IMG/VR virus record: IMGVR_UViG_3300027659_000011
Span: 64,413 to 128,412 of that record
From: a virus
Strand: one strand, 5' to 3'
Length of the DNA stretch: 64,000 bases
Shown here: piece by piece, positions 51,627-64,000 of the stretch
How the letters are laid out: each line of letters opens with the position of its first letter
How positions within the stretch are numbered: position 1 is the stretch's first letter
Position numbers and translations under genes: made by a program
The notes under the pieces: generated by a model
Databases searched by the model: none
The model's input: the letters and a program-made list of their open reading frames with translations, nothing else
Told to the model about the DNA's origin: nothing

Positions 51627-51653
51627 GATTGTTGATTTGCTGTTTAAGTATAT

Positions 51654-51682: not shown

Positions 51683-51693
51683 CTGCAAATTTT

Positions 51694-51945: not shown

Positions 51946-51947
51946 CC

Positions 51948-52322
51948 TTACTTACCGCCCTGAAGGCGAGCACCAAGTGAGAAGAAATTTTTATCTGACA
52001 CTTGCATTAGTTTTTGTGATTGTTGTACAAACTTACCAGGTTTTTGTAGAGCTGATCCTGCTACTGCTTGATTTGAACTCATAATACTACGATCAAACCT
52101 ACCCGAGAATAATTTAAATAATTTTGCTATGCGAATCCAGCTTTTTGACCATTCACGATTAGTAGGAGTTTTACGACGACGATGAATATTTTGCAAAGCT
52201 AACTTTACTTGTTCATTGTTTGGCTGCAACTTTAACTGTTTTTCCAATTTACGTTTACGATTAACTTCCCATCTGTTTGATTTTCCAGACGGGGCTGGTG
52301 TTGCTTTATTCTTAGTTGCCAC
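51948..52322 (-). CDS. basic hypothetical protein
   Basis: GTG start after AAGGA; Lys/Arg rich. Confidence 0.6.
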   Translation of the reverse strand: MATKNKATPAPSGKSNRWEVNRKRKLEKQLKLQPNNEQVKLALQNIHRRRKTPTNREWSKSWIRIAKLFKLFSGRFDRSIMSSNQAVAGSALQKPGKFVQQSQKLMQVSDKNFFSLGARLQGGK

Positions 52323-52343
52323 TTAATTTCCTTACTAGTTGTT

Positions 52344-52420
52344 TGGTGGGCCGTGAGTGATTCGAACACTCCACCAATGGATTATGAGTCCACTGCTCTA
52401 ACCTAATGAGCTAACAGCCC
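52344..52420 (-). tRNA. tRNA-Ile2/Met (CAT)
   Basis: Cloverleaf, anticodon arm GTGGA-CTCATAA-TCCAT, CCA encoded; body resembles Ile2. Confidence 0.88.
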
Positions 52421-52428
52421 TGCTGACT

Positions 52429-52513
52429 TGGTGCGAGTGGCCGGAATCGAACCGGCATGCCTTGCGGCGAGGGATTTTAAGTCCCTTGCGTCTACCTATT
52501 TCACCACACTCGC
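52429..52513 (-). tRNA. tRNA-Leu (TAA)
   Basis: AGGGA-CTTAAAA-TCCCT, long variable arm, ACCA. Confidence 0.93.
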
Positions 52514-52561
52514 AAAATTTACTTTTCACTCTAATAACTATAATCGAATGAATAGATTGAT

Positions 52562-52590
52562 ATTATATCAAACTTTAATGCACTATTCAA
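52562..52590 (-). promoter_or_regulatory. sigma70 promoter for the tRNA pair
   Basis: TTGAAT-17-TATAAT. Confidence 0.75.
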
Positions 52591-52621
52591 GTGCATATTT
52601 ATAGATTCAAAATTACAAACT

Positions 52622-52655
52622 AAAAAGAGGACTAACCTAATGGCTAGTCCTCTTT
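52622..52655 (-). terminator. intrinsic terminator after hsp20
   Basis: aaaaagaggacta...tagtcctcttt. Confidence 0.75.
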
Positions 52656-52660
52656 ATGGT

Positions 52661-53080
52661 TTACTCTATTTCAATGATACGAGGTTTTTTAGATTCTGGC
52701 AATTTTCTTTCTAATACTACTGTAAGAATACCGTCTTCCATTGAAGCGGACTTTACAACCATATGCTCAGCAATAGTAAACTGATGATTAAAACTTCTAG
52801 CACTTAATCCGTGATGTAAGTACTGTTGCTTTTGTTCATCTTTTTGTTTTATACCTTTTATCAGTAATTGTTCCTTATCTAACTGTACTGTAATTTCTTT
52901 CTTCTTGAAGCCTGCTACCGCAACTTCAACAGTGTAATTATTCTCATCGGATTTAATTACATTATAAGGTGGATAATTTACTGAGTTTCGATACTCTAAA
53001 GTGTCAAAAACCTGATCAAATCCAATTAACGTACGATTAAATGGTCCAAAATTAATGGTACCAACTCTAAGTTCTGTCAT
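52661..53080 (-). CDS. small heat shock protein (Hsp20/IbpA-like)
   Basis: IGFD, YPPYN, E.AVAGF, YLH.GLS.R.F, A.MEDGIL. Confidence 0.92.
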   Translation of the reverse strand: MTELRVGTINFGPFNRTLIGFDQVFDTLEYRNSVNYPPYNVIKSDENNYTVEVAVAGFKKKEITVQLDKEQLLIKGIKQKDEQKQQYLHHGLSARSFNHQFTIAEHMVVKSASMEDGILTVVLERKLPESKKPRIIEIE

Positions 53081-53151
53081 ATATTTTCTCCTTTTATAAG
53101 CAAGAACATTTGGGCAATCTGCCCGTGTGCAACCTCATAATGAGCATTGCA
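53081..53151 (-). promoter_or_regulatory. ROSE-like RNA thermometer in the hsp20 5' UTR
   Basis: Three hairpins; the last is UUCUUGCUU-AUAA-AAGGAGAA with a bulged G opposite the SD. Confidence 0.65.
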
Positions 53152-53157
53152 AAATTA

Positions 53158-53232
53158 TGGCGGTACCAGAGGGTAACGATCCCTCTCCTCAGCAGTGACA
53201 GTGCTGTGTGCGTCCATGAACACCTTGGAACC
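53158..53232 (-). tRNA. tRNA-Asp (GTC), atypical T-loop
   Basis: CAGCA-CTGTCAC-TGCTG, G73-CCA; T-loop ATCGTTA. Confidence 0.82.
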
Positions 53233-53238
53233 TAAAAC

Positions 53239-53316
53239 TGGAACAACGGGTGAGATTTGAACTCACGGTTTTCAGGATTTGCAATCCCGTGCATTTGACC
53301 ACTCTGCCACCGTTGC
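53239..53316 (-). tRNA. tRNA-Cys (GCA)
   Basis: CGGGA-TTGCAAA-TCCTG, U73-CCA. Confidence 0.9.
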
Positions 53317-53320
53317 GTAT

Positions 53321-53394
53321 TGGAGCGGGGTAACAGAATCGAACTGTCAGCATTAGCTTGGAAGGCTAAGGTATTACCACTATACGAACCCCGC
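53321..53394 (-). tRNA. tRNA-Gly (TCC)
   Basis: TTAGC-CTTCCAA-GCTAA, U73-CCA. Confidence 0.93.
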
Positions 53395-53401
53395 ATAAAT
53401 A

Positions 53402-53629
53402 TTATTTATATCTTGATGGTGGTAGCTCACTTAGTGAGCACTCAGTATATTCGCCAGTATCTGAATTGACTTCTGCACCTGCAATAATTTGTTTAATTTG
53501 CTCATCTGTAAGCGCACCATCATCAGCCTCATATTCTGGCTTATTATCTCTAGCAAATATAGCATCCCAACGTGAGGCATACTCTTCGTTAGCAACACTA
53601 AAGGGTCTAGGGGTTGAGCCTTTACTCAT
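53402..53629 (-). CDS. hypothetical protein
   Basis: Start at MSKGSTPRP...YASRWDAIF. Confidence 0.55.
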   Translation of the reverse strand: MSKGSTPRPFSVANEEYASRWDAIFARDNKPEYEADDGALTDEQIKQIIAGAEVNSDTGEYTECSLSELPPSRYK

Positions 53630-53900
53630 ATATAGTTGACCATTGTTTAAGTTTTTCCAATTTAGCACGGGCAGCTGCCTCAATACTATGCTCATTTACT
53701 AATTTAGTTTCACACATGATATTGATCATGGCAACTAAATCACCTAATTCTTCTTCTAGGTGTTGTCTATTAGTTTTATTGTTTCCTGGCTTAAAATTAT
53801 CTAAACCAAAACGATTTACTTTACTAACTGCTTGGATTACTTCTGCACACTCTTCTTGCAGAATACCCGTAATTTCTTTAAGTTGACTTTCTGTTGTCAA
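53622..53900 (-). CDS. MazG-like nucleotide pyrophosphohydrolase
   Basis: EECAEVIQA.SK..RFG...LEEELGD. Confidence 0.8.
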   Translation of the reverse strand: MTTESQLKEITGILQEECAEVIQAVSKVNRFGLDNFKPGNNKTNRQHLEEELGDLVAMINIMCETKLVNEHSIEAAARAKLEKLKQWSTIYE

Positions 53901-54151
53901 AATGGTATGTCCTCAAATGGTAATATTTCTTCTTGATAATGTTTTTCATTATCTCTTACACTTTTTAATAATATACATCTATCTACGACTTCTGAGTTAA
54001 ACATATTTTGATTGTTATTGTGTAAGAACATTATATAATTATAATCCATTTCAACTATAGAGTCAACCCTACAATTCTGATACTTTCCGAAATCAAAGAA
54101 ATCAAGTAATCCTAATTTTAGGGATTTAATACTTTTAAATGTTATTGCCAT
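53897..54151 (-). CDS. hypothetical protein (FGKY motif)
   Basis: Start at MAITFK; FGKY...Y..F; DIPF C-terminus. Confidence 0.55.
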   Translation of the reverse strand: MAITFKSIKSLKLGLLDFFDFGKYQNCRVDSIVEMDYNYIMFLHNNNQNMFNSEVVDRCILLKSVRDNEKHYQEEILPFEDIPF

Positions 54152-54154
54152 ATG

Positions 54155-54246
54155 TGGTACCCCCAGCGGGAGTCGAACCCACATGAACCAATTATCTGTT
54201 GCTTACGGGATATAAATCCGCCGTTTTACCATTAAACTATAGGGGT
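54155..54246 (-). tRNA. tRNA-Ile (TAT) with extra-long variable arm
   Basis: Acceptor ACCCCTA/TGGGGGT, A73-CCA, loop TTTATAT, 22-nt variable region. Confidence 0.75.
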
Positions 54247-54251
54247 ATGTT

Positions 54252-54326
54252 TGGGCAGGCGTACGAGAATTGAACTCATGATATCGGAATCACAATCCGA
54301 GGTTTTACCACTAAACTAACACCTGC
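54252..54326 (-). tRNA. tRNA-His (GTG)
   Basis: G-1:C73, TCGGA-TTGTGAT-TCCGA. Confidence 0.92.
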
Positions 54327-54331
54327 ATACT

Positions 54332-54544
54332 TTATTTTATGTCTAACTTACGTGCAAGTTCTTTAATATTAATAAAAAATTCTTCTAACTCTTTATCTTC
54401 AGCCTCTAGATCTTCTATTCGCGAAGCTGCTTCTTCTAATAAATCTGCAATACGGTCAGGAGCGCCCTCTTGAACACTTTTCCGATCTTTAATTTGTCTA
54501 CGTATTTCTGCACGTTTACGTAATCTGTATACTAGTGATTCCAT
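54332..54544 (-). CDS. hypothetical protein
   Basis: LVYRLRKRAEIRRQI..RKSV.EG..DRIADLLEEAA. Confidence 0.65.
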   Translation of the reverse strand: MESLVYRLRKRAEIRRQIKDRKSVQEGAPDRIADLLEEAASRIEDLEAEDKELEEFFINIKELARKLDIK

Positions 54545-54545
54545 A

Positions 54546-55016
54546 TTATGCCGTTTTCAAACTATTATATCTATCGGCTGCATAACTGGCAGCAAATGCA
54601 TTTGGTTTAACCATTGGTATTACATTACACGTACCTTTTATATAACCAATAGCTTGCTGAACAACACAGCTAGATGCGTGAGAGACATCAGGATTAATAT
54701 CTAGATGTACTTCTACCTTACGATCTTCTAGAACTTCTTTTAAATTCTGAAATAGCTCAGATACTTTATACACTTCATTCATAAGTCTCATGGAGGGTTT
54801 ACTCTGCTTTTGGTCATAATCTAATTCTGTATGTGTTTCACCAAAAATTTTACAACCATGACAACCATCAATATGTACTACAACTACTAACGTATATTCA
54901 GCATACCAGCGATTATGTCGCTTTACTCTTATAGAGTCTGCACCAATATAGATTTTAGTACTTGGACTTTGTGACTCTATATAAGCTTTAACTTGCTGAA
55001 TATTTAATTTTTTCAT
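54546..55016 (-). CDS. RNase H-like protein (YkuK/DUF458 family)
   Basis: IYIG.DS, RL..EV, EVHLDIN, KP.AFAAS.AAD. Confidence 0.78.
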   Translation of the reverse strand: MKKLNIQQVKAYIESQSPSTKIYIGADSIRVKRHNRWYAEYTLVVVVHIDGCHGCKIFGETHTELDYDQKQSKPSMRLMNEVYKVSELFQNLKEVLEDRKVEVHLDINPDVSHASSCVVQQAIGYIKGTCNVIPMVKPNAFAASYAADRYNSLKTA

Positions 55017-55027
55017 CTTGTACTAAT

Positions 55028-55098
55028 TGGTTGCGGCGGAAGGACTCGAACCTTCTAGGCGGAGCTTATGAGACTTGCCTTTACCCTGACTCACCGCG
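55028..55098 (-). tRNA. D-arm-deficient tRNA-fMet-like RNA (CAT)
   Basis: C1xA72 acceptor, CTCATAA loop, canonical T arm, no D stem. Confidence 0.65.
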
Positions 55099-55103
55099 AT
55101 ATT

Positions 55104-55445
55104 TGGTGCCAGTATTCTGTTACGAGGAACTGGCGGAACCCTAAGCAGAGTTTAGGCTGCTAATGCGAACTGTGAGTCGTTTGCGTTTACTTTTGTTTAG
55201 TGTTAACGACAACTCTGTCGGACCGTCCATCTTTGTACTTATTGCCCTGTCGATTCTAAAACAGGCCCACCATAATACGTCTAGCATGTCTTCTGGAATA
55301 ATTGTTAATACAAATGTAGTTGACACAATCTACATTAACAAACTTCCAAAGTGAATATGTTTCATCCATGTTAAATCCTATTATGGTGGACCTGGGGGGA
55401 TTCGCACCCCCGTCCAGAACTACTTTCGATTAACTTCATACGATC
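55104..55445 (-). ncRNA. ssrA: circularly permuted two-piece tmRNA
   Basis: Acceptor piece ending CAGGTCCACCA (55384) precedes coding piece starting GGGCCTG (55268); G3:U70; tag ANDSQFALAA* at 55152-55184; outer ends approximate. Confidence 0.9.
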
Positions 55446-55451
55446 ATACTT

Positions 55452-55526
55452 TGGCACACCCCCAGGGATTTGAACCCTGACTAACGGTTTTGGAGACCGA
55501 CGTGCTGCCAATTACACTAGAGGCAT
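55452..55526 (-). tRNA. tRNA-Trp (CCA)
   Basis: TCGGT-CTCCAAA-ACCGT, G73-CCA. Confidence 0.9.
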
Positions 55527-55531
55527 ACTAA

Positions 55532-55603
55532 TTATTTCTTTTTTAGTACTCGTTTTGCTGTAGCTTTAATACTACGCTTATGGTGCGCTTTAAATTTAGC
55601 CAC
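55532..55603 (-). CDS. 23-aa highly basic peptide
   Basis: GTG start; MAKFKAHHKRSIKATAKRVLKKK. Confidence 0.45.
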   Translation of the reverse strand: MAKFKAHHKRSIKATAKRVLKKK

Positions 55604-55605
55604 AA

Positions 55606-55671
55606 TTATTTACGCTTACGTAGTTGTCTACGTACAGCTGCCTGAGTTTTAGTTTTTGCTCTGTAAGCCAT
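55606..55671 (-). CDS. 21-aa highly basic peptide
   Basis: MAYRAKTKTQAAVRRQLRKRK. Confidence 0.45.
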   Translation of the reverse strand: MAYRAKTKTQAAVRRQLRKRK

Positions 55672-55680
55672 AATGTATCT

Positions 55681-55785
55681 TTAATATTTAGGTTTCTTTT
55701 TTGGAGGTGTCATAGGCATTGCAGGAACACGAGGTCCTGCTGGCTGCATTGGGATTGAACCGACAGGTTTTTTAGGTTTTACCAT
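55681..55785 (-). CDS. 34-aa Pro/Lys-rich peptide
   Basis: MVKPKKPVGSIPMQPAGPRVPAMPMTPPKKKPKY. Confidence 0.45.
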   Translation of the reverse strand: MVKPKKPVGSIPMQPAGPRVPAMPMTPPKKKPKY

Positions 55786-55786
55786 A

Positions 55787-56281
55787 TTAAAATTCTTTCT
55801 TTAGGGAATGATTATCAATAGCAGAACGTAAAGCACGTTCCACTAATTGGTTAAAAGTAATGTCTTTTTCATGTGCAGTACGAGCAAACACCATAAAGTC
55901 TTCATCACTAAGTTCAAAGGGCACTGAAACTCTAGTATCATAAGCTCTACCATCAACAATAGCAGATGCTTTTTCTAGAATATCTTCTGCAACTTCTAAT
56001 TCACAGTATTTTTTACCTACAGCATTTGTTTGTTTTTCTTGTGTTTCCACAAAGTCTTGTGTAGTCCAGCGATAGTAGTTTTCTTGTGCGTAATCTTCAG
56101 CTGTGATTTCTAAAATTTCTTGACTGACTACATCAAATACGCACGTTAAGTAGTGATCTGAATTACCATAACTAATCTCACATACCAAGTCTGTTTCTTG
56201 GTTGTAGATTGTGTTTTCTAAAAATGATTTATCGTGTATGGTGTAATTGATAACATTTAAAAACTTATTTAATTTAATCAT
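55787..56281 (-). CDS. hypothetical protein
   Basis: 164 aa; C-terminal YDTRV.VP...AHE.DITFNQ.VE..L. Confidence 0.65.
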   Translation of the reverse strand: MIKLNKFLNVINYTIHDKSFLENTIYNQETDLVCEISYGNSDHYLTCVFDVVSQEILEITAEDYAQENYYRWTTQDFVETQEKQTNAVGKKYCELEVAEDILEKASAIVDGRAYDTRVSVPFELSDEDFMVFARTAHEKDITFNQLVERALRSAIDNHSLKKEF

Positions 56282-56292
56282 TTTATTATATC

Positions 56293-56928
56293 CTAAACCT
56301 TCAATTTAAAATTACCAGAAACACTAATTCGATATTCATCGCTAGAAAAAAATGGGTATACCATATGTTGAAAATTAGAGGGGAAAATTACTATATTATT
56401 TTCTCTTTTTTTATCTACTGGAATATTACAGGATTTTATTGCTCCAATACTATCATTGTATAAAAAACTAAACATTCCAGCCGTATTAAAATTAGATTCA
56501 ACTCCAGGAGATAATTTGCGCTCTTCTTCCATGTAATATGGAACACTAGTCCATATTACGAAACTATATAGTCCTGAGTGGTTGTGTATAGGATTAAACT
56601 CATATTTCTTTTGAAAATTGACCCAAAATGTATCTAATACAATTTCTATATTACCTGTTGTAATATTAAAGTTTTTTAGGTAATTAAATTCTTTATCATA
56701 TGCATCGAGCAGAGGTACTAACAGTTGTTCAATATAAGTTTTAGACTTTACTAATTCATACTCTCGTTTAATATTTCCAGCTAATTCTGTATTGTATTTT
56801 TGCTTTTCATATAACTCAAAATTATTTTGTATATTATGGATTTCTTTTTTTAAAGGTGCTAAATCAGATTCTGAAAATTTAGCACTAAGAAATCCGTAAT
56901 TTTTTAAACCAGTTACATTATATTGCAT
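56293..56928 (-). CDS. 2OG-Fe(II) oxygenase
   Basis: WVN...NP.HNH...SFVIW, FPS...H.VYPF, RISVSGN. Confidence 0.82.
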   Translation of the reverse strand: MQYNVTGLKNYGFLSAKFSESDLAPLKKEIHNIQNNFELYEKQKYNTELAGNIKREYELVKSKTYIEQLLVPLLDAYDKEFNYLKNFNITTGNIEIVLDTFWVNFQKKYEFNPIHNHSGLYSFVIWTSVPYYMEEERKLSPGVESNFNTAGMFSFLYNDSIGAIKSCNIPVDKKRENNIVIFPSNFQHMVYPFFSSDEYRISVSGNFKLKV

Positions 56929-56992
56929 TATTATTCTTTTACGGCTCAAATAGAAACTCAGGACTTTCACCTGATTGTCCCGTAAGGATCTT

Positions 56993-57161
56993 AATTTTAT
57001 AACTGTTCTACTGTGATTTTAAGAAGCTATATGCTTCACCTATACCCATGCGAATTTAATCTCAAGGCTTTTATGTTTCTTGGACTTTGAAACTATAGGC
57101 AGATTGATACCTTAGTAGATAGGCCGATTGTCCTAACTTTCCCATTCACAGTTATAAAATT
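56993..57161 (-). ncRNA. candidate structured RNA (strand inferred from context)
   Basis: Intergenic, closed by a perfect 14-bp inverted repeat with internal hairpins. Confidence 0.4.
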
Positions 57162-57210
57162 CCTCTTTGCAGAGGAAAGTGTAAGAATTCCACTTACTAT
57201 CACATCGCTT

Positions 57211-57444
57211 TTAAGTCTGCGTGTCCAAGACTTTTTTTGTAAAAAACTCTTTATCAACGTAGAACTGTATTAGTTCTCTTTGGAGTTGTGTTATTAAATC
57301 ACCATGAGCATCATTAAGTACAAAACGTACAGGGCATGTACCCCACTTACGAGTTGCATTAAATTCTGCAAACCATTTTCGATGTTCCTTATTGTTAGCA
57401 TCAAATACTACATAAGTACGTCCATGCAACTGCAAGCTGCTCAT
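57211..57444 (-). CDS. hypothetical protein
   Basis: FDA.NKEHRKWF..F.....WG.CPVRF. Confidence 0.65.
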   Translation of the reverse strand: MSSLQLHGRTYVVFDANNKEHRKWFAEFNATRKWGTCPVRFVLNDAHGDLITQLQRELIQFYVDKEFFTKKVLDTQT

Positions 57445-57611
57445 TGTGATTTCCTAATATTAAATGTATGTGTGATTTGTTTTTACGACGAATTCGTATT
57501 TTCTTTGTAGCTGTTCTACTTCGTATACCGACTTTGGGTCGTGATCTTCAATAAAACGTTGCATAGGCATATCTTTTTCTAGTAGCTGTTTAAGATAAGA
57601 TAAAAAACTCA

Positions 57612-57836
57612 TTATTTTTTATTCACAAAAGAATAAAACTCTTGAGCTTGATCAAGAATATCTTTTGTAGTAGGAAATGACATTTTAGGCATATTTTCAG
57701 TTGCAGCTACTCCAGCATCTACCATTTTCATGTATGCTTCTGTAGTAAACTTAAGATTAGCCGTGTACTGTTTTTCTAAATGATCTTGTGCAAGTTTTAA
57801 AAGGTCTGCACGAATTTCAAATGGAGATTTAGTCAT
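57612..57836 (-). CDS. hypothetical protein
   Basis: PFEIR..LL.LA...FPT...I...A..FY.FV. Confidence 0.65.
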   Translation of the reverse strand: MTKSPFEIRADLLKLAQDHLEKQYTANLKFTTEAYMKMVDAGVAATENMPKMSFPTTKDILDQAQEFYSFVNKK

Positions 57837-58059
57837 TTTTAGATGCCTTTGCTTTTGTTGGATTAAAAATGTCAGAAAATCCGTCTACTGAGTACTTGCT
57901 CATATCAGTAGTATTCTGAACCAACATTTTAGCAAACTGGGTTTGTGCATCAATAAACTTATGAGCAACTTTGTTCAGTTTAGGGTCAGTAAAAATTTGA
58001 TTTGTGATAAGTTTCTTTGTTGATTGAAAGTTATCAATGTAAAATTCGATAGTAAACAT
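57829..58059 (-). CDS. hypothetical protein (phasin-like amphipathic)
   Basis: FYID.FQ..KK...FIDAQT.FAK; AAGGA RBS. Confidence 0.55.
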   Translation of the reverse strand: MFTIEFYIDNFQSTKKLITNQIFTDPKLNKVAHKFIDAQTQFAKMLVQNTTDMSKYSVDGFSDIFNPTKAKASKND

Positions 58060-58090
58060 AATGTTTCCTTAGTGTGTTGTGTGAAAAAGT

Positions 58091-58164
58091 TGGTGGAGAT
58101 AGCGAGAATCAGACTCGCGTTTTTAGAATCGGAATCTAGTGTTCTATCATTGAACTATATCCCC
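58091..58164 (-). tRNA. tRNA with CCG (Arg) anticodon and Ala-type acceptor stem
   Basis: GGGGATA/TATCTCC-A-CCA; CTAGA-TTCCGAT-TCTAA; T-loop TCTGATT. Confidence 0.75.
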
Positions 58165-58214
58165 CCAAAAGAAGTTTTAAAGATGCCTCTTAACATCTAT
58201 AATCTTTATATTAG

Positions 58215-58290
58215 TGGTCTCTCTACAAGGATTCGAACCTTGACCACACGGCCCCAAACCGTGTACGCAACCTGATAACGCTTTAGAGAG
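58215..58290 (-). tRNA. tRNA-Pro (TGG)
   Basis: C1:G72, CACGG-TTTGGGG-CCGTG, A73-CCA. Confidence 0.9.
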
Positions 58291-58295
58291 ATAGC

Positions 58296-58378
58296 TGGTG
58301 CCCCAACCGAGACTCGAACTCGGATGCTTGCGCACTGGCTTCTAAGACCAGCGTGTCTACCAATTCCACCATCGGGGC
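58296..58378 (-). tRNA. tRNA-Leu (TAG)
   Basis: CTGGT-CTTAGAA-GCCAG, variable arm, ACCA. Confidence 0.93.
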
Positions 58379-58383
58379 AAATA

Positions 58384-58539
58384 TTACCAATGCCTAATAA
58401 CTCCAGCAATAATAAATAAGTTTGTTACTATATACCCTAGTACTATACAAGTTCTAATAATAGCCACCCGATCAGCTTGATTATCCTCACCTGCTTTTTC
58501 TCCTAGAGCTTTTGCCCATAGTTTCCATAATGATTTCAT
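58384..58539 (-). CDS. small membrane protein (51 aa)
   Basis: LWKLWAKALGEKAG...ADRVAIIRT...IIAGVIRHW; not in ORF track. Confidence 0.6.
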   Translation of the reverse strand: MKSLWKLWAKALGEKAGEDNQADRVAIIRTCIVLGYIVTNLFIIAGVIRHW

Positions 58540-58633
58540 AAATAAGGATCTGAGGTAACTGCGCCCGTGATTTTAGGTTCGCAATAATTATTGCCAATGG
58601 GCTAGGTGGTACGCTTGTGTACCTCAGAAAAAA

Positions 58634-58831
58634 TTATTTTAAATTTTTAAATTCTTTAATTGCTTCTGCATCTAAGGAAGCATAAACGCGAAACTTGTCA
58701 CGACCAACTTGATCATACAAGTCAGAAGCCATTTTTTCCATACTCTCTAGTGTATCAATAGATAAAAGCGTACACGTAATATATCTGCTCATAAAAGCAT
58801 CTATTAAAAATTCTTTATTATATCCTGCCAT
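58634..58831 (-). CDS. hypothetical protein
   Basis: MAGYNKEFLIDAF..RY; GGAG RBS after promoter. Confidence 0.6.
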   Translation of the reverse strand: MAGYNKEFLIDAFMSRYITCTLLSIDTLESMEKMASDLYDQVGRDKFRVYASLDAEAIKEFKNLK

Positions 58832-58853
58832 AATAATCTCCAATTAAGTATAT

Positions 58854-58882
58854 ATTATACTCTAATTTGAGATCAAAGTCAA
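58854..58882 (-). promoter_or_regulatory. sigma70 promoter
   Basis: TTGACT-17-TATAAT. Confidence 0.8.
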
Positions 58883-58891
58883 GTGTATATT

Positions 58892-58966
58892 TGGTCCAGC
58901 GACTAGGAATCGAACCTAGATTGATAGCTTAGAAGGCTATTGTTCTGTCCATTGAACTATCGCCAG
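58892..58966 (-). tRNA. tRNA-Arg (TCT)
   Basis: ATAGC-CTTCTAA-GCTAT, GGA in D-loop, ACCA. Confidence 0.92.
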
Positions 58967-59094
58967 TATTTCTGGGTTTTAGTATCTATGTACCATTTAA
59001 CGTCTTCTTTATATATTTGCCATACAGAAATACTTATTACTAATAATATTTCAAGTATAAAGATAATAGTTATTATTGAGCCTAATATTGTCAT
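58957..59094 (-). CDS. small single-TM protein (45 aa)
   Basis: ATGA overlap with uvsE stop; hydrophobic N-terminal half. Confidence 0.4.
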   Translation of the reverse strand: MTILGSIITIIFILEILLVISISVWQIYKEDVKWYIDTKTQKYWR

Positions 59095-60098
59095 ACATGA
59101 CCTATTTCTTCTGCAAACTGTCTACTGGCTGTATTCTTTTGTTTAGACTCACACATAATGTCTGCTGACTCTAAGAAAGTTCCAGCCCACTGATTAACTT
59201 CTTTGTTCCAGTAAAATTCTGAATGTGCACGAAGTTTAGCTGAGGTAAAACCCTGTGATTTGAGTTCACGAAAGTCTGGGCGAGTTTGTCCACAATGATC
59301 AATGAGTATGTCTTCTCTGCTAATAGAGTAGTGAATAACTGGTCTGACACCACGCCATGAATCTTGAATTCGCTTAACCTTAGGGTCATTTGGCTGAATA
59401 TACTCACCACTAGCAATCCAGTGATGATGAATGTCAAGAACTAAGGCACAGTGGTCTACTAATTCTAGTGAGGCATCAATACCCCATGAGAACTCTGCGT
59501 TCTCGATGGTAAGTGTATTACGTGCTTCGGGTGTTAGTCGCTTTAGAGCTGAGATAATCCCTTTGGGACCTTGTTTGCCACCTACGTGTACATTGCATTT
59601 AAAGTCTTGAAACTTACGACCGTAACCCATGTAACGAATAATATCTGCATGATACTCAAACTCAGTAATTGACTTTTCAACTGTGCCTTCATTATCTGAG
59701 GCAAGCACACAAAACTGACCTGGATGAAAGCTAACGCGTACATCTGCTGCACGGAACTTATCACCGATACGGGAAAGATTCTTTTCTAGAAAGTCTACTA
59801 CATCTGCTTGGAAGTAGAACCACATCCAGTCATCGTGTGAATATCCAGTAAGTAGATCACTACTTAATCTAAACATACGTAGACCTGCGGGTTGTTGTGC
59901 CATCCAGTCAGCTTGATTTTCAAGAGCTTGAATATTAGTACGCATCAAAGCCCATAGTCTTTCAGCAGCTATGTCTTTAGATTGCTTATTAAGCCATGTG
60001 ATGGTAGTGCCTTTAGTTTGGCAATTCACTACATCTGTAGATTCTGAACTTTGAATTTTACACGCAAAGCCAACGCGTTTTTGATTTTGATTAAACAT
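59091..60098 (-). CDS. uvsE: UV damage endonuclease
   Basis: FRLSS, R.SFHPGQF.VL.S, NVH.GG, IEN.E, LDIHHH, HYS, AHS, DIMCE.K.K. Confidence 0.92.
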   Translation of the reverse strand: MFNQNQKRVGFACKIQSSESTDVVNCQTKGTTITWLNKQSKDIAAERLWALMRTNIQALENQADWMAQQPAGLRMFRLSSDLLTGYSHDDWMWFYFQADVVDFLEKNLSRIGDKFRAADVRVSFHPGQFCVLASDNEGTVEKSITEFEYHADIIRYMGYGRKFQDFKCNVHVGGKQGPKGIISALKRLTPEARNTLTIENAEFSWGIDASLELVDHCALVLDIHHHWIASGEYIQPNDPKVKRIQDSWRGVRPVIHYSISREDILIDHCGQTRPDFRELKSQGFTSAKLRAHSEFYWNKEVNQWAGTFLESADIMCESKQKNTASRQFAEEIGHV

Positions 60099-60105
60099 AG
60101 TAGTT

Positions 60106-60134
60106 ATTATACTAAATTCAACCTCTCAAGTCAA
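60106..60134 (-). promoter_or_regulatory. sigma70 promoter of uvsE
   Basis: TTGACT-17-TATAAT. Confidence 0.8.
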
Positions 60135-60219
60135 GAGAGTAATTTGAAGACCGGCCCAAGCAACCATTAAACGTTTTTTACTGTAATAGTGTGTTTACTT
60201 TGTCGCTGGGCTGCTTCAA

Positions 60220-60693
60220 TTATCGTATAATACCTTTTTCTAGTCGCTCAGATACTAAGCGAGCATATCCAGCAATATCAACCCAGCTATCTGCATAGTC
60301 TGGTCGGCCGTTTAAGATGCGCGCTATTTTGTGCACTATCATCTCTAAACTTTCCTGTTGATCTGCATCCATATTTTCCCAGCTTGGCGCAGCGTGTAGA
60401 ATTTCTTTAAGGTTTTGTGTAATGGTTGCCATATCAATAAATGGACCATAATTTTTTGCACGTTCGTCTAAAATATTTAGAGTAGAATCTTCTTCATACT
60501 CGTCATCAGCAAATACAAATGTTGCACCACCCGTAGTTCCTGGCATAGGAATAGTAATAGTATCTGTACTGTTATTAGCTGTAATAAAAGTAGGAGAATA
60601 CATTGTATTATCTATTTTAGGTCCCTGCTCTGGTTTGGAAGTAGGAAAGGGCCAGTTTGGCCATACTTGGTTTAATTCTAGTTCTTTTGTCAT
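60220..60693 (-). CDS. DUF6378-like protein
   Basis: L.ER...YG.F, MI.HKIARI.NG.P...DSW.DIAGYA.L. Confidence 0.7.
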   Translation of the reverse strand: MTKELELNQVWPNWPFPTSKPEQGPKIDNTMYSPTFITANNSTDTITIPMPGTTGGATFVFADDEYEEDSTLNILDERAKNYGPFIDMATITQNLKEILHAAPSWENMDADQQESLEMIVHKIARILNGRPDYADSWVDIAGYARLVSERLEKGIIR

Positions 60694-60931
60694 AATTTTA
60701 TATATTAAGGATTAGTATAAGATTCATAGAACCTTATAATAATCCCTCCTAAGAGGAATTACCGTACATGCTTTCTGCAAAAAGACTCACAGTACTACAT
60801 TCAGTCTGTCCCGCTCAGCCGTGCAGGGCTATGCTTCGATGATGAATTGTAAGGATTAGGATTAATTTGAAAACGCAGGCAAAGCTCAAATCCTGCGCAA
60901 TAAGTAATTATACCCGAATTCTTCTGTCAGG

Positions 60932-61126
60932 TCAAGAGTATTTTTCCGGAGCCCTTAGCAGAGCAGGTAATTGTTTCTTAGTTTTAATCTGTTTTATTAA
61001 TTCAGGATTAATACCGTACAGAGTATTAACTGATCCCGCTGCTTTTTGATATTTTTCGTAAACAGGTAAGAGCTGATCAAGTATTAATAATTCTAACTCT
61101 TTAACGTAAGTATGTGAAGAATTCAT
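60932..61126 (-). CDS. hypothetical protein
   Basis: 64 aa, AAGG RBS, own promoter. Confidence 0.55.
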   Translation of the reverse strand: MNSSHTYVKELELLILDQLLPVYEKYQKAAGSVNTLYGINPELIKQIKTKKQLPALLRAPEKYS

Positions 61127-61147
61127 ATGGTACCTTTAGTTTGCCCT

Positions 61148-61176
61148 ATTATATCACTGTTACCTGTTAGTGTCAA
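61148..61176 (-). promoter_or_regulatory. sigma70 promoter
   Basis: TTGACA-17-TATAAT. Confidence 0.85.
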
Positions 61177-61214
61177 TACTAAAAATTTTTATCCTATAAT
61201 TTTATAGGCAAAAC

Positions 61215-61244
61215 AAAAGCCCCAGAACGAATCTTGGGGCTTTT
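61215..61244 (-). terminator. intrinsic terminator ending the long ncRNA
   Basis: aaaagcccca...tggggctttt. Confidence 0.8.
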
Positions 61245-61249
61245 GAAAG

Positions 61250-62110
61250 TATTTGCTGTTGCAACAGCGTTATCTTTTTTAACTCTAGCAGGGCTTTTAA
61301 GGGAATCACCACGACCTGACCTTAAACTGTAGCACGTTGGCTACTTACAACCTTTGGTGATGAGTCCATCGCGAGGCTGTTTAAGTGAGTGTTGCACGTT
61401 TCAGTCCTTTCGCTACCAACGCATAGGATATCCGTGACTAACTATACCATGTCAACCTCTACAGTAAACCATGTAGGTAGACTGTTGGGTATGCTTGGCA
61501 ACTGGTTTAACGACTTGCGGGTCGGGAGTGTGTTTACGAATCTGCCCAAACGACTATTTTTTCAATTATTTTAAAGACCCGCTACAGTTCAGGGTCTAAA
61601 GTATTAAAGTGTTTCTCCCGTATACTTCGTCAGGGGACTAGCCCTGTAACGTGGACAAGTTCGACTACTTAATATTTTGCGACCCTGCAGTTTAGGGTCG
61701 ATGCGCACCATTATTTAATTACCCTTGCTAGGTATCGCTAGTGAGATTCCATACTCACATTACAGTCACTAAAGTCTGCTCTTGGTTAGAAGATAGCTGT
61801 ATTTGAAAGAGTTCTTTCTCTGGAGTTCCTACCTTGTTGTCACTCCGAACCAGCTTTAGCTTTACGATGCCATCGGCATAAGGCAATAACGCTACCTTGC
61901 ACTCATCGAATAATTTTATACTCTATTATTATATGAGTCTTGCTATTGTTTCGGCTCGCAACAAGAACGAGCATTTTGAAGGCTTAACCTTGACTCGTAG
62001 CGTCTAATACATTAAGTTGAAAGGGTGAAAGTCTTAATGTATTAGATACTGCTAGAGTTTCGCCTAAATTACATAGGCTCATCAGAAGGTTTCTTATTAT
62101 TATCAATTTA
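61250..62110 (-). ncRNA. large structured non-coding RNA (about 860 nt) with 5' hammerhead
   Basis: No minus-strand ORF in the track, own promoter and terminator, many hairpins and long-range complementarities. Confidence 0.7.
61986..62091 (-). ncRNA. type I hammerhead ribozyme
   Basis: AACCTT-CTGATGA-GCCTA/TAGGC-GAAA-CTC...GAG-TC^AAGGTT; cleavage predicted between 61992 and 61991. Confidence 0.88.
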
Positions 62111-62117
62111 TGTATGA

Positions 62118-62146
62118 ATTATACAGTAAATAAACATACAATTCAA
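62118..62146 (-). promoter_or_regulatory. sigma70 promoter of the long ncRNA
   Basis: TTGAAT-17-TATAAT. Confidence 0.8.
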
Positions 62147-62163
62147 GTAAATAATTTTATTCT

Positions 62164-62239
62164 TGGTACTCGGTACGGGATTCGAACCCATGTGAATGCC
62201 GTGAAAGGGCACGATCCTAGGCCGCTAGATGAACCGAGT
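62164..62239 (-). tRNA. tRNA-Glu (TTC)
   Basis: GTGCC-CTTTCAC-GGCAT, CCA encoded. Confidence 0.92.
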
Positions 62240-62246
62240 GTACGAA

Positions 62247-62545
62247 ATAGGCGGCAACTAGAGATTTCAGTCGTCATTAAAAACTTATCCAGCCACAAAG
62301 AGTTGGTCTCGGTTTACCTATAAATTAGTGCTATCGTGCCGATTCTGGAAGTAGCCGCTAAGCTCCCCAATGCCATTGGCAGTTATATCAGGATCAGTTA
62401 CTGGCAGTGCATGATCCGTTAGTCTAAGCGTCCTCAGCGCATACCTTGATAACACTAATTTATAAGTAAAGGGCTGTGGCTCGGGTAATTATTCCCCACA
62501 ATTAAGACGCATAACAGATAGATCCTGTTTCCGCTGTCGCCCTAT
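62247..62545 (-). ncRNA. candidate structured RNA (about 300 nt)
   Basis: Paired termini, 23-bp helix with two G-U pairs on the minus strand, own promoter. Confidence 0.6.
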
Positions 62546-62559
62546 CAATTTATATAATA

Positions 62560-62588
62560 ATTATACAGCGTTTAGCTATACATTTCAA
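62560..62588 (-). promoter_or_regulatory. sigma70 promoter
   Basis: TTGAAA-17-TATAAT. Confidence 0.78.
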
Positions 62589-62597
62589 GAAAAAAAT

Positions 62598-62724
62598 AAC
62601 AGTCGTTGCCACTATGAACTGGCTTCGCAGGTGTGTCGACATACAGTGACTGATTGGTGAGCGAAGAGATCGTTGACAAACGGGCAGCATTTTCATGCTA
62701 TTCATTAAGCCCTTCCCGACTGTT
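62598..62724 (-). ncRNA. candidate small structured RNA (about 127 nt)
   Basis: AACAGTCG...CGACTGTT closing stem, promoter just upstream, U-run downstream. Confidence 0.5.
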
Positions 62725-62732
62725 TATAAATA

Positions 62733-62762
62733 ATTATACAACATAATAGGCAATCAGATCAA
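62733..62762 (-). promoter_or_regulatory. sigma70 promoter
   Basis: TTGATC-18-TATAAT with extended -10 TG. Confidence 0.65.
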
Positions 62763-62834
62763 GTATAAATTTTTATACCTATTTTTTAAATGATGCTATT
62801 TTTGTACAAAATTTCTTAAATTTATTTAAAGTAT

Positions 62835-62863
62835 ATTATAATCTAAATTTACTTGAGTTTCAA
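62835..62863 (-). promoter_or_regulatory. sigma70 promoter
   Basis: TTGAAA-17-TATAAT. Confidence 0.65.
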
Positions 62864-62878
62864 GTATTAAATTTCTGT

Positions 62879-63058
62879 CTAAAAACTCCAGCCCGCTTCT
62901 TCTAAGGCTTCCTGTGCTACATCTTCTGGCGACATTCCGTGATTCCAACTACTCCAATAATCATAATCAGGTATATCTTCAATACCTAAACCACAACTAT
63001 TAATTACATGCTGGTTAACTACTTTCATCCAGTCTTCAAAAGCAATTTCTTTTTTCAT
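62879..63058 (-). CDS. small acidic hypothetical protein (59 aa)
   Basis: MKKEIAFEDWMK.V...GLG.EDIPDYDY..W..G.SP..A; AAGGA RBS. Confidence 0.6.
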   Translation of the reverse strand: MKKEIAFEDWMKVVNQHVINSCGLGIEDIPDYDYWSSWNHGMSPEDVAQEALEEAGWSF

Positions 63059-63076
63059 TGTGTTTCCTTTTAAAAA

Positions 63077-63184
63077 TTATTCTTGTATACTGATAGCTTC
63101 AAGATTTTCGGATAGCATTTCTCGGATAAGTTCATGAAGGTTTGAGAAGTCTCCGTAGAAAAAAGCCGCTTCAATTTCTGTCAT
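63077..63184 (-). CDS. small hypothetical protein (35 aa)
   Basis: GGAG RBS directly after promoter; MTEIEAAFFYG. Confidence 0.45.
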   Translation of the reverse strand: MTEIEAAFFYGDFSNLHELIREMLSENLEAISIQE

Positions 63185-63206
63185 TTGTTTCTCCAAATTA
63201 ATAACT

Positions 63207-63319
63207 ATTATACAAAATTTTTAAAAAAATTTCAATTTTATGATTTTTGCCGTTACAGCCTGTGGTTGGGTAGCGTGCGTAAAAATTAACTTGATTTTTA
63301 CAGCTAAAGAGCTTATAAT
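63207..63319. promoter_or_regulatory. divergent promoter pair
   Basis: Minus TTGAAA-17-TATAAT (63207-63235); plus TTGATT-17-TATAAT (63291-63319). Confidence 0.7.
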
Positions 63320-63352
63320 GTTATTTCGATTATTATTATTTTAAATAAACTC

Positions 63353-63640
63353 ATGGATATAGCAACTGCACTGGATGCTGGAACATTAGAATACTTAGCT
63401 GATGGCACACAAATGCCCCGTCCACCAACAGCTTTAGCTATAAGAGCAGCAAAACACATTCGTAACTTAGAGGGACAACATCAAGTGCATTTACAAGCAC
63501 TTATGCAATCTCAAAATAGAGAGGCTACCCTTCTACAAGATTTGGATAGCTGCAGACTAAAATTAAAGGAGTTAGATGCAGAGTTACAAAATCTTCGCAC
63601 ATCAGGATCGGCAACTAGCAGCATGGATAGTTCAAGCTGA
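63353..63640 (+). CDS. hypothetical coiled-coil protein
   Basis: 95 aa ORF after the plus-strand promoter. Confidence 0.6.
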   Translation: MDIATALDAGTLEYLADGTQMPRPPTALAIRAAKHIRNLEGQHQVHLQALMQSQNREATLLQDLDSCRLKLKELDAELQNLRTSGSATSSMDSSS

Positions 63641-63724
63641 AAGTTATCTAGAAGCAATAGAATTAGTTAGACAAGAAACAGAGATAACTTCGGCAATATT
63701 ATGTTTATTAGAGGAGAGTGCTAA

Positions 63725-64000
63725 ATGAATATCATAAAAGCAATAATCCTTTCTGCAACTTTAATTATACCAATTTTTATAGTTCAAAAAGCTTACGAAT
63801 TTAGGGTCAATCGTTTAGGTGAGTATAACCAGCAAACAACAAAAACTTTTAGTTCTGTTACGGAAATGGAAAGAGAACTAAAGTGTATGACTCGTAATAT
63901 ATACTACGAAGCTGGCAGTGAGCCAGTTGAGGGTAAGATTGCAGTAGCACAGGTAACATTAAATCGTGCAAAAGATGGCAGGTTTGGCGCAGGTATTTGC
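63725..64000 (+). CDS. SleB-like cell wall hydrolase (Hydrolase_2), truncated by the window end
   Basis: N-terminal TM then CMTRNIYYEAGSEPVEGKIAVAQVTLNR. Confidence 0.85.
   Translation, partial: MNIIKAIILSATLIIPIFIVQKAYEFRVNRLGEYNQQTTKTFSSVTEMERELKCMTRNIYYEAGSEPVEGKIAVAQVTLNRAKDGRFGAGIC

Follow-up and report, generated by a model that had tools for sequence, protein, structure and literature searches.

Gene content and tRNA structure at the locus

The stretch of DNA analysed here (hereafter the window) comprises 64,000 nucleotides of a freshwater phage, corresponding to positions 64,413 to 128,412 of IMG/VR record IMGVR_UViG_3300027659_000011. A cluster of tRNA genes on its minus strand includes tRNA-Leu(UAG), tRNA-Pro(UGG) and a third tRNA with the anticodon CCG, which reads the arginine codon CGG (Table 1). 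The acceptor stem of this third tRNA comprises G1:C72, G2:C71, G3:U70, G4:C69, A5:U68, U6:A67 and A7:U66, followed by the discriminator A73. The Rfam tRNA model (RF00005) matches 58094-58164 end to end (model positions 1-71) at 60.8 bits, against a gathering score of 29, which is the third best of 12 tRNA matches in 50000-64000. The cloverleaf is the minimum-free-energy fold (−19.3 kcal/mol, 60% of the ensemble, z −2.76). ARAGORN at default settings misses the gene, and reports it as Arg(ccg) only at a 95% threshold (-ps95).

Table 1. Positions, in window coordinates, of the CCG tRNA, its parts and neighbouring features.
Feature	Position	Strand	Details
tRNA with anticodon CCG, alanine-type acceptor stem and encoded CCA	58091..58164	-	
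Anticodon CCG	58130..58132	-	In loop UUCCGAU, with A37
5' acceptor strand, positions 1-7	58158..58164	-	G3 at 58162; pairs with 58095-58101
3' acceptor strand, discriminator and CCA	58091..58101	-	Strand 58095-58101 (U70 at 58097), A73 at 58094, CCA at 58091-58093
D loop AAUGAUA	58145..58151	-	G18, A19 in place of G19, U20 in place of the arginine determinant A20
T loop UCUGAUU	58107..58113	-	U54, C55, U56; in place of UUCGAUU
tRNA-Pro(UGG)	58215..58290	-	Upstream neighbour in the cluster (ARAGORN)
tRNA-Leu(UAG)	58296..58378	-	Upstream in the cluster (ARAGORN)
76-aa ORF	57829..58059	-	Directly downstream; tblastn 67% identity to 60426-60644 of the related phage contig G001, where the orthologue lies 23 nt after tRNA-Ala(UGC) (60330-60403)
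51-aa ORF containing a CGG codon	58384..58539		
Promoter-like site, TTGACT-17-TATAAT (11 of 12)	58854..58882	-	Could drive the Leu-Pro-CCG tRNA unit; consensus scan only
tRNA-Arg(UCU)	58892..58966		G3.U70, A73, C1:G72, U2.G71, A20

The original prediction described a tRNA with complete alanine identity but an arginine anticodon, U20 and a compensatory change of the elbow pair G19:C56 to A19:U56. That observation holds, as every listed sequence feature is present. In addition, position 55 is C rather than U, and thus both elbow contacts are changed (18:55 G-C and 19:56 A-U), while 27:43 is a C-A mismatch that leaves a 4-bp anticodon stem. A read-level error in the anticodon, which would have undermined the observation, is ruled out: identical copies lie in two other metagenome contigs (L120 and L125), a copy with three changes and the same anticodon lies in a third contig (L001), and contigs of four separate runs cover 58091-58164 with no base change.

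Comparison with published identity sets (PMC9976931) shows that the gene carries the full bacterial acceptor-stem set for alanine. Of the bacterial alanine determinants (A73, G2-C71, G3.U70, G4-C69 and G20) only G20, a minor determinant, is missing; some true phage tRNA-Ala genes also have U20, for example those of contig L008 and of Synechococcus phage S-CAM7. Of the bacterial arginine determinants (A/G73, A20, C35 and U/G36) the tRNA has A73, C35 and G36 but lacks A20, the main determinant for E. coli ArgRS. In an alignment of 25 ordinary phage tRNA-Arg genes the A after G18-G19 is at least 90% conserved.

The order Leu(UAG)-Pro(UGG)-next tRNA is shared with related phages. Of 15 loci with this pair, the next tRNA is Ala(UGC) in nine, the CCG tRNA in three (the window, L120 and L001) and Trp in one, while the contig ends in two. 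As the downstream ORF is also orthologous, the CCG tRNA occupies the tRNA-Ala(UGC) slot of related phages, and this genome has no other tRNA-Ala. With ordinary phage and bacterial tRNA-Ala(UGC) it also shares the acceptor identity set and the encoded CCA. BLAST of the window tRNA or its 3-kb surroundings against 50,697 phage records found no near match, and the only distant matches were to neighbouring genes. RNA-library contigs cover the region, although contigs cannot show transcription. No sequence complementary to the anticodon loop lies elsewhere in the window.

Recurrence in other phages

Pattern scans found the same combination as cloverleaf tRNAs in 5 of 14 viral stretches and 16 of 27 metagenome stretches, including cyanomyovirus-like contigs. 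It also occurs in cultured S-CAM7 isolate 0910SB42, where it is annotated tRNA-Arg-CCG and lies beside a true tRNA-Ala(UGC) with the same T arm and 3' acceptor strand. Of the 25 listed BLAST rows for the S-CAM7 copy, two are itself and 23 are annotated tRNA-Ala. The gene is present in two S-CAM7 records and absent from two, and isolates 0910SB42 and 0910CC49 thus provide natural plus and minus variants on Synechococcus.

Across 13 distinct copies 95.7% of cells are paired and 14 of 23 pairs change on both sides, values that none of 500 shuffles reaches. G3:U70 is present in all 13 copies and the G1-G4 acceptor set stays fixed while the rest of the stem varies, although the search pattern required these bases. 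A20 is absent in all 13, with U, C or G at this position; the cyanophage copies have C20 and contig L122 has G20. The 19:56 pair is G-C in 11 copies and A-U in two, and the cyanophage copies have a canonical elbow and T loop. The 17-nt T arm of the window copy, together with a G18-A19 D loop, also occurs in a tRNA-Asp of the unrelated contigs L081 and L082.

A phage tRNA-Ala model outscores a tRNA-Arg model in 10 scored copies other than the window copy, for example 64.2 versus 48.4 and 59.9 versus 51.0 bits. The window copy, by contrast, scores 47.0 bits on the Ala model and 52.6 on the Arg model, and the L001 copy 45.3 and 50.4. Both are far below true members (73-82 and 60-82 bits, respectively), and thus overall similarity does not place the window copy. 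By global identity the nearest neighbours of the window copy are the other CCG/Ala-type tRNAs (0.66-0.71), followed by the local tRNA-Ala (0.65) and tRNA-Arg(UCU) (0.64). As the search pattern fixes about 20 shared bases, these values do not discriminate between common descent and convergence, and we claim only that the window copy occupies the same slot. A partial scan for the D arm of the cyanophage copies returned mostly Thr, Met, Asn, Gly and His tRNAs, indicating that the arm is generic; it yielded one more member (contig L172), which lacks an encoded CCA.

Use and meaning of CGG

CGG is the rarest sense codon of the phage, accounting for 18 of 37,961 codons in a crude set of 145 ORFs, consistent with the original prediction. 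It is similarly scarce in S-CAM7 (67 of 64,129) and in G006, the sequence paired with S-CAM7 for comparison (19 of 30,177). This rarity is explained by composition alone, as the CGG/CGA ratio of 0.14 is in line with the 0.08-0.17 of other NNG/NNA pairs. CGG does have the lowest G000/G001 (window phage to relative) frequency ratio of 61 codons (0.48; 18 versus 34), but the other NCG codons are also low (0.60-0.78) and the counts are small; we do not consider this evidence for special depletion in the tRNA-bearing phage. Similarly, S-CAM7 isolates with and without the tRNA have 67 and 66 CGG codons, and thus no purging is visible, although their 98.6% identity makes this test weak.

The suggestion in the original prediction that CGG is common in the host could be examined only for the cyanophage analogues and not for the host of this freshwater phage. 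A published table gives CGG as 2.48% and 2.31% of codons in two Synechococcus strains, compared with 0.25% in phage Syn9 (PMC11726456). A back-translated pattern for the tmRNA tag matched 0 of 401 genomes of one class, which is uninformative regarding the host.

Alignment of CGG positions with homologues rejected recoding of CGG to Ala. CGG codons of the window phage align with Ala in G001 at 0 of 10 positions (six R, two K, one S and one V), and in the reverse direction at 0 of 18. The CGG position in the 51-aa ORF (Table 1) is R in four, K in one and Q in one of six homologues, giving 0 Ala at 11 positions in this phage. Between S-CAM7 and G006, in both directions, the figure is 0 of 42, whereas in a control GCG codons aligned with Ala in 77 of 105. 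In S-CAM7 compared with G006, CGG positions are Arg in 12 of 26, against 59 of 69 for CGA and 197 of 219 for CGC, which might suggest that CGG is kept away from conserved arginines. However, G001, which lacks the tRNA, shows the same pattern (nine R of 18), and this property is therefore not specific to carriers.

A possible mistranslating tRNA and the alternatives

The explanation we favour, although it is about as likely as not, is that this is a functional phage tRNA built on alanine identity but carrying the arginine anticodon CCG. In this view it would be transcribed with tRNA-Leu(UAG) and tRNA-Pro(UGG) and matured like its neighbours. The host alanyl-tRNA synthetase, which reads the acceptor stem and not the anticodon, would charge it with alanine, while arginyl-tRNA synthetase would handle it poorly because A20 is missing. 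On the ribosome it would compete with the host's single CGG-reading tRNA-Arg(CCG) and insert alanine at CGG codons. As the phage hardly uses CGG and likely hosts use it much more, the Arg to Ala damage would fall mostly on host proteins made during infection. The analysis itself establishes the gene, its fold and identity marks, its position in the tRNA-Ala slot, its recurrence and covariation in other phages, and the rarity and arginine sense of CGG in phage genes. Alanine charging (more likely than not), decoding of CGG and host-directed mistranslation as the selected purpose (less likely than not) are inferred from sequence. The interpretation in the original prediction is therefore partly supported: the identity elements, the tRNA-Ala(UGC) slot, the recurrence in other phage lineages with compensatory stem changes and codon rarity are in its favour, while the stalling relief and decoy roles that it also raised are neither supported nor excluded.

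Several observations temper this view. C35, G36 and A73 are arginine determinants, and thus dual charging is possible. The phage's ordinary tRNA-Arg(UCU) also carries G3.U70 and A73, and as AGA is the commonest Arg codon of the phage (535), G3:U70 alone cannot be strongly mis-charging in this host. C55 replaces the near-universal U55 and 27:43 is mismatched, either of which could lower activity. The 18 CGG codons that remain, at positions that are mostly Arg or Lys in relatives, mean that the phage would mistranslate itself too.

It is possible, although unlikely, that the tRNA functions with arginine, or with both amino acids, simply supplying a decoder for the few CGG codons of the phage, with the alanine-like acceptor as inherited baggage. 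The retained arginine determinants, the slightly higher Arg model score of the window copy, the tolerance of G3.U70 in tRNA-Arg(UCU) and the Arg-like CGG positions in phage genes are consistent with this proposal. The absence of A20 from all copies argues against it, as does the observation that a phage needing an Arg decoder could carry a normal one: the lineage represented by L081 and L082 has an ordinary tRNA-Arg(CCG), which in L081 has A20 and scores 70.2 bits on the Arg model. Moreover, all other tRNAs of the window phage match codons that it uses often (AGA 535, UUA 1458, CUA 686, GGA 884 and GAA 1578). A role outside decoding appears less likely still, whether as a decoy or sponge presenting an arginine-type anticodon loop to a tRNA-cleaving defence nuclease, to ArgRS or to a modification enzyme, or as a donor of alanine to a non-ribosomal acceptor. 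There are anticodon nucleases and phage tRNAs that counter them, the elbow of the window copy is unusual, and the phage invests heavily in translation rescue, encoding its own two-piece tmRNA. However, the elbow of the cyanophage copies is canonical, a decoy for an Arg-tRNA nuclease would not need an intact alanine acceptor, and no partner gene is consistently adjacent, the neighbours being tRNAs and small ORFs.

It is similarly improbable that the gene is a near-neutral passenger, or a decaying tRNA-Ala whose anticodon drifted and which persists because CGG is so rare in the phage. The 27:43 mismatch, C55, the default ARAGORN miss, the dispensability of the gene within S-CAM7 and the lack of CGG purging are compatible with such a fate. 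Conversely, UGC to CCG requires three changes, yet CCG is found on alanine-type bodies in at least three sequence-distinct groups, with covarying stems. The three differences between the window and L001 copies fall at the already mismatched 27:43 pair and at position 67, where U:A becomes U:G, while flanking DNA is 89-92% identical. In one run (X17) a strain's contig shows 19 differences in the flanking 236 nt (57834-58069), whereas the single contig aligned over the tRNA shows none. Reassignment of CGG to alanine in the phage's own genes, as phages do with stop codons, is contradicted by the codon alignments, even though the same tRNA design accompanies an inferred CGG-to-Ala code in Clostridia.

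A more far-reaching possibility, which remains doubtful, is that phages of at least two unrelated kinds (a T5-like freshwater siphovirus and marine cyanomyoviruses) have replaced or supplemented their tRNA-Ala(UGC) with an AlaRS-charged tRNA that reads CGG, the codon with the steepest host-over-phage usage. Such a tRNA would act as a codon-selective weapon, corrupting newly made host proteins, including induced defences, while CGG-poor phage genes are largely spared, a form of host takeover by programmed mistranslation. Viral tRNAs are usually explained as supplying codons that the virus uses and the host reads poorly. This tRNA does the opposite, reading the codon that the phage uses least while carrying the marks of the wrong amino acid. 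If charged with alanine, it would be a natural, virus-delivered mistranslating tRNA and a new way of taking over a host, by codon-selective sabotage, and would link to the code newly proposed in Clostridia. Full-text literature searches found no paper on a phage tRNA with alanine identity and a CCG anticodon, although subscription journals lay largely outside the library searched. The finding also bears on annotation, as such genes are at present labelled tRNA-Arg from the anticodon alone.

Mismatches between anticodon and charging identity that exploit the indifference of AlaRS to the anticodon have precedents in natural mistranslating or identity-swapped tRNAs, such as yeast tRNA-Ala(CAG), human tRNA-Ala anticodon variants and the bacterial tRNA-ProX family (PMC11415595, PMC10404621). 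Those are cellular genes, and the word 'phage' does not occur in the main text of the 2024 review (PMC11415595), whereas the gene described here is carried by a virus and its anticodon is directed at a codon that the virus avoids. Phage suppressor tRNAs used in stop-codon recoding also change how a codon is read during infection, but they read stop codons, and the phage's own late genes depend on them. The CCG anticodon is not complementary to a stop codon, and the phage's own genes do not use the proposed new meaning. The closest precedent is a putative Ala-tRNA(CCG) of Clostridia genus RGIG3102, reported in a 2026 preprint (10.64898/2026.04.02.715157), which lacks A20, has G3:U70 and G1:C72, and accompanies CGG inferred to be read as alanine. 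There the tRNA is the cell's own decoder in a genome whose CGG positions look like Ala, whereas cultured hosts of the cyanophage analogue use the standard code with abundant CGG; in the phage setting the tRNA would mistranslate rather than translate. A chromosomal example of this design was also found here in an Oscillospiraceae MAG (L162).

A tRNA gene with a CCG anticodon and an alanine-type acceptor stem

The 74-nt gene matches the Rfam tRNA model end to end at 60.8 bits against a gathering score of 29, the third highest of 12 tRNA matches in window positions 50000-64000. The cloverleaf is its minimum-free-energy fold (-19.3 kcal/mol, 60% of the ensemble, z -2.76). ARAGORN at default settings lists 13 RNA genes in the window but not this one, while at a 95% threshold it reports tRNA-Arg(ccg) at exactly these coordinates; the miss is likely due to the T loop, which is UCUGAUU instead of UUCGAUU. 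The sequence displays the acceptor pairs G1:C72, G2:C71, G3:U70, G4:C69, A5:U68, U6:A67 and A7:U66, the discriminator A73, an encoded CCA, a D loop of AAUGAUA (G18, A19, U20), an anticodon loop of UUCCGAU (CCG, A37) and a T loop with U54, C55 and U56. A C-A mismatch at 27:43 leaves a 4-bp anticodon stem. Every sequence feature in the original prediction, which described an alanine-type acceptor, a CCG anticodon, U20 and an A19:U56 elbow, is therefore present, although C55 and the 27:43 mismatch had not been noted.

The gene is not an artefact. Identical copies lie in two metagenome contigs (L120 and L125), and a copy with three changes (positions 27, 43 and 67) lies in a viral contig (L001) whose surrounding DNA is 89-92% identical to the window. 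Twenty public freshwater runs hold the stretch, and in the contigs of four of these, which cannot show transcription, no base differs within the gene. The only change is a one-base length difference in the C run at its 5' edge, seen in one run; in that same run one strain's contig shows 19 differences in the flanking 236 nt at 57834-58069.

The window is the second half of a 128,412-bp phage record of 36.7% GC, in which all of the tRNAs and a two-piece tmRNA lie in the last 12 kb. The other tRNAs read codons that the phage uses heavily (AGA 535, UUA 1458, CUA 686, GGA 884, GAA 1578, CCA 502), whereas CGG, in a crude set of 145 ORFs, is the rarest sense codon at 18 of 37,961. A tRNA-Ile(UAU) with a long extra arm faces a common codon (ATA, 1018). 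The genome contains no tRNA-Ala(UGC). A promoter-like site, identified by a consensus scan only, could drive the Leu(UAG)-Pro(UGG)-CCG unit.

Coordinates of the features discussed
Feature	Sequence	Position	Strand	Details
tRNA with anticodon CCG	window	58091-58164	-	74 nt
51-aa ORF containing a CGG codon	window	58384-58539
Promoter-like site	window	58882-58854
tRNA-Arg(UCU)	window	58892-58966	-	A20, G3.U70, A73, C1:G72, U2.G71
Two-piece (permuted) tmRNA	window	55061-55526	-	tag ANDSQFALAA; Rfam tmRNA_permuted 112.5 bits, beta_tmRNA 107.8 bits
Same tmRNA tag	G001 (relative)	63358-63717
tRNA-Trp	window	55452-55526		G3.U70, G73
tRNA-Ile(UAU)	window	54155-54246	-	92 nt; ARAGORN; Rfam 56.1 bits
tRNA-Asp(GUC)	L081 (IMG/VR contig)	4359-4433		T loop UCUGAUU, G18-A19 D loop; also in IMG/VR contig L082
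tRNA-like gene, alanine-type acceptor	L161 (Skermanella stibiiresistens SB22 contig)	6954-7028		G3:U70, A73
tRNA-like gene, alanine-type acceptor	L106	689-763		G3:U70, A73
tRNA with anticodon CCG	L162 (Oscillospiraceae MAG)	5906-5981		G1-G4 alanine-type acceptor, U20
tRNA-Gln(UUG)	L008 (related phage)	10586-10659		G3.U70, G73, U1-U72
tRNA-Gln(UUG)	L014 (related phage)	18779-18852		G3.U70, G73, U1-U72
tRNA-Gln(UUG)	L015 (related phage)	13209-13282		G3.U70, G73, U1-U72

The genomic position of the gene is that of a tRNA-Ala in related phages. The neighbouring UvdE gene was used to retrieve 80 related viral loci; 13 of these, together with the window and contig L120, carry the Leu(UAG)-Pro(UGG) pair. 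In these 15 loci the next tRNA downstream is Ala(UGC) in nine, the CCG tRNA in three (the window, L120 and L001) and Trp in one, while in two the contig ends before any further tRNA. In the complete 123,962-bp relative G001, to which 90 of the 145 ORFs of the window phage have matches at a mean identity of 66%, tRNA-Ala(UGC) ends 23 nt before the orthologue of the 76-aa ORF that follows the CCG tRNA here. Sequence similarity does not tell whether the CCG gene descends from that tRNA-Ala, as its identity to the local tRNA-Ala is 0.65 and to the local tRNA-Arg(UCU) 0.64.

Bacterial alanine identity comprises A73, G2-C71, G3.U70, G4-C69 and G20, while bacterial arginine identity comprises A/G73, A20, C35 and U/G36, with A20 the main determinant for E. 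coli ArgRS (Giege and Eriani, PMC9976931). The window tRNA contains every acceptor-stem alanine mark and lacks only the minor G20; it has the anticodon and discriminator marks of arginine but not A20. In an alignment of 25 ordinary phage tRNA-Arg genes from the retrieved loci the A that follows G18-G19 is at least 90% conserved, and the two rows that depart in that column carry the same GGA one column later. Covariance models were built from 13 phage tRNA-Ala and from these 25 tRNA-Arg, on which true members score 73-82 bits (Ala) and 60-82 bits (Arg). The window copy scores 47.0 (Ala) and 52.6 (Arg), and the L001 copy 45.3 and 50.4, so that overall similarity is uninformative for this copy. 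All 10 other copies scored favour the Ala model despite their anticodon.

Recurrence of the combination in other phages

A pattern that fixes G1-G4, U8 A9 G10, A14, the CCG loop, U70-C72, A73 and CCA was used to explore how widely the combination occurs. In viral contigs it returned 14 stretches, of which 5 are cloverleaf tRNAs; in metagenome contigs 27 stretches, of which 16 are cloverleaf tRNAs; and in one genome for each of 185,579 species 13 stretches, of which 3 are tRNA-like. Most of the tRNAs belong to cyanomyovirus-like contigs of about 39-46% GC, where the gene lies between Thr(UGU) and Asn(GUU), while one lies in a contig of 33% GC (L122).

BLAST against isolated phages identified the gene in two records of Synechococcus phage S-CAM7, where it is annotated tRNA-Arg-CCG. 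It is absent from two other S-CAM7 records, which have Met-Ala(UGC)-Asn at that place. Two isolates (KU686213.1 and KU686212.1) that are 98.6% identical differ by a three-tRNA block, Ser(UGA)-Thr(UGU)-CCG tRNA, inserted between Ala(UGC) and Asn(GUU), and thus form a natural presence/absence pair. In isolate 0910SB42 the CCG tRNA shares its T arm and 3' acceptor strand with the true tRNA-Ala(UGC) 360 nt upstream, and of the 25 listed BLAST rows for that copy 2 are itself and 23 are annotated tRNA-Ala.

Across 13 distinct copies 95.7% of pair cells are standard pairs and 14 of 23 pairs change on both sides; no shuffle of 500 reaches the observed values. The invariance of the acceptor top and the anticodon in this set is largely by construction of the search. 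The elbow pair 19:56 is G-C in 11 copies and A-U in 2, while the 18:55 contact is G-U in 11 and G-C in 2. The altered elbow of the window copy recurs, with the identical 17-nt T arm, in the tRNA-Asp of the unrelated contigs L081 and L082, which supports it as a working variant and suggests a recurrent alternative elbow (18:55 G-C, 19:56 A-U) in phage tRNAs that default tRNA finders may miss.

CGG codons in phage and host genes

The CGG codons of the phages that could be aligned do not occupy alanine positions. Of the 18 in the window phage, 10 align to G001, where they are 6 Arg, 2 Lys, 1 Ser and 1 Val; of the 34 in G001, 18 align back, to 9 Arg, 7 Lys and 2 Thr. The CGG in the 51-aa ORF, singled out for alignment in the original prediction, is R in 4, K in 1 and Q in 1 of 6 homologues. 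Between S-CAM7 and the 97,656-bp carrier contig G006, in both directions, 42 aligned CGG positions give 22 Arg, 6 Lys, 7 Gln, 7 others and 0 Ala, while GCG control codons align to Ala in 77 of 105. These data show that the phages have not recoded CGG and, if the tRNA inserts alanine, that is mistranslation.

Special avoidance of CGG could not be demonstrated. The CGG/CGA ratio is 0.14, within the range of other NNG/NNA ratios (0.08-0.17). CGG has the lowest carrier/non-carrier frequency ratio of all 61 codons (0.48), but on 18 against 34 counts, and the other NCG codons are at 0.60-0.78. S-CAM7 isolates with and without the gene have 67 and 66 CGG codons, respectively, 65 of them shared, at 98.6% genome identity.

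With respect to the host, a published table gives CGG as 2.48% and 2.31% of codons in Synechococcus WH5701 and WH8102, and 0.25% in cyanophage Syn9 (PMC11726456); S-CAM7 has 0.10%. For the cyanophage analogues the codon is thus 10- to 20-fold commoner in the host. Attempts to find the host of the window phage yielded none; the runs are freshwater, and the phage tmRNA, whose tag also occurs in G001, matches the betaproteobacterial two-piece family.

Inferred function and related tRNAs

The observation made in the original prediction is thus confirmed and extends to other phages. Its interpretation, that the tRNA would insert Ala at CGG codons with the host as a possible target, is supported in part. 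The most likely mechanism is alanine charging by host AlaRS and alanine insertion at CGG, with the burden falling mainly on host proteins, a view held overall with intermediate confidence. Alanine charging is considered rather more likely than not, while host sabotage as the selected role is a tentative proposal. The gene, its fold, its identity marks, its genomic slot, its recurrence and the sense of CGG in the phages are established by the sequence analyses, whereas charging, decoding and any effect on host proteins are inferred from them.

This phage's ordinary tRNA-Arg(UCU) also has G3.U70 and A73, but in a C1:G72, U2.G71 context and with A20. Close relatives (the loci L002, L007, L008, L011 and L013) have C70, so the change is specific to the lineage that also carries the CCG tRNA. 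As AGA is the main arginine codon of the phage, G3:U70 alone cannot cause heavy alanine charging in this host, and the case for the CCG tRNA rests on the complete G1-G4 set together with the missing A20. G3.U70 also occurs, with G73, in tRNA-Gln(UUG) genes of three related phages, which have a U1-U72 end, and in three phage tRNA-Trp genes (in the window, L026 and L027). C55 and the 4-bp anticodon stem might weaken the CCG tRNA or alter its decoding. A 2026 paper proposes that 4-bp stems let C34 also read A-ending codons (PMC13092985) and, if so, this tRNA would also read CGA.

Other explanations carry less weight. A decoder charged with Arg, or with both amino acids, is unlikely but the strongest of these; a decoy that does not act in decoding is less likely still, closely followed by a tolerated passenger. 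Self-recoding of CGG by the phage is all but excluded.

Identity-swapped or mistranslating tRNAs are already known; the gene described here differs in being phage-borne. The word 'phage' does not occur in the main text of a 2024 review of tRNA-based mistranslation (PMC11415595), and full-text literature searches found nothing on a phage tRNA of this kind. A 2026 preprint (10.64898/2026.04.02.715157) tentatively reports CGG read as alanine in the Clostridia genus RGIG3102, supported by a tRNA(CCG) that lacks A20 and has G3:U70 and G1:C72. One chromosomal example of this design was found in the Oscillospiraceae MAG, flanked by Rnf, ribulose-phosphate epimerase, trigger-factor and TadA-like deaminase genes, and may be another case of the code proposed for Clostridia. 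The tRNA-like genes of L161 and L106 lie in DNA of 62-66% GC; their anticodon arm folds with a 6-nt or an 8-nt loop containing CCG, and ARAGORN reports a two-base anticodon.
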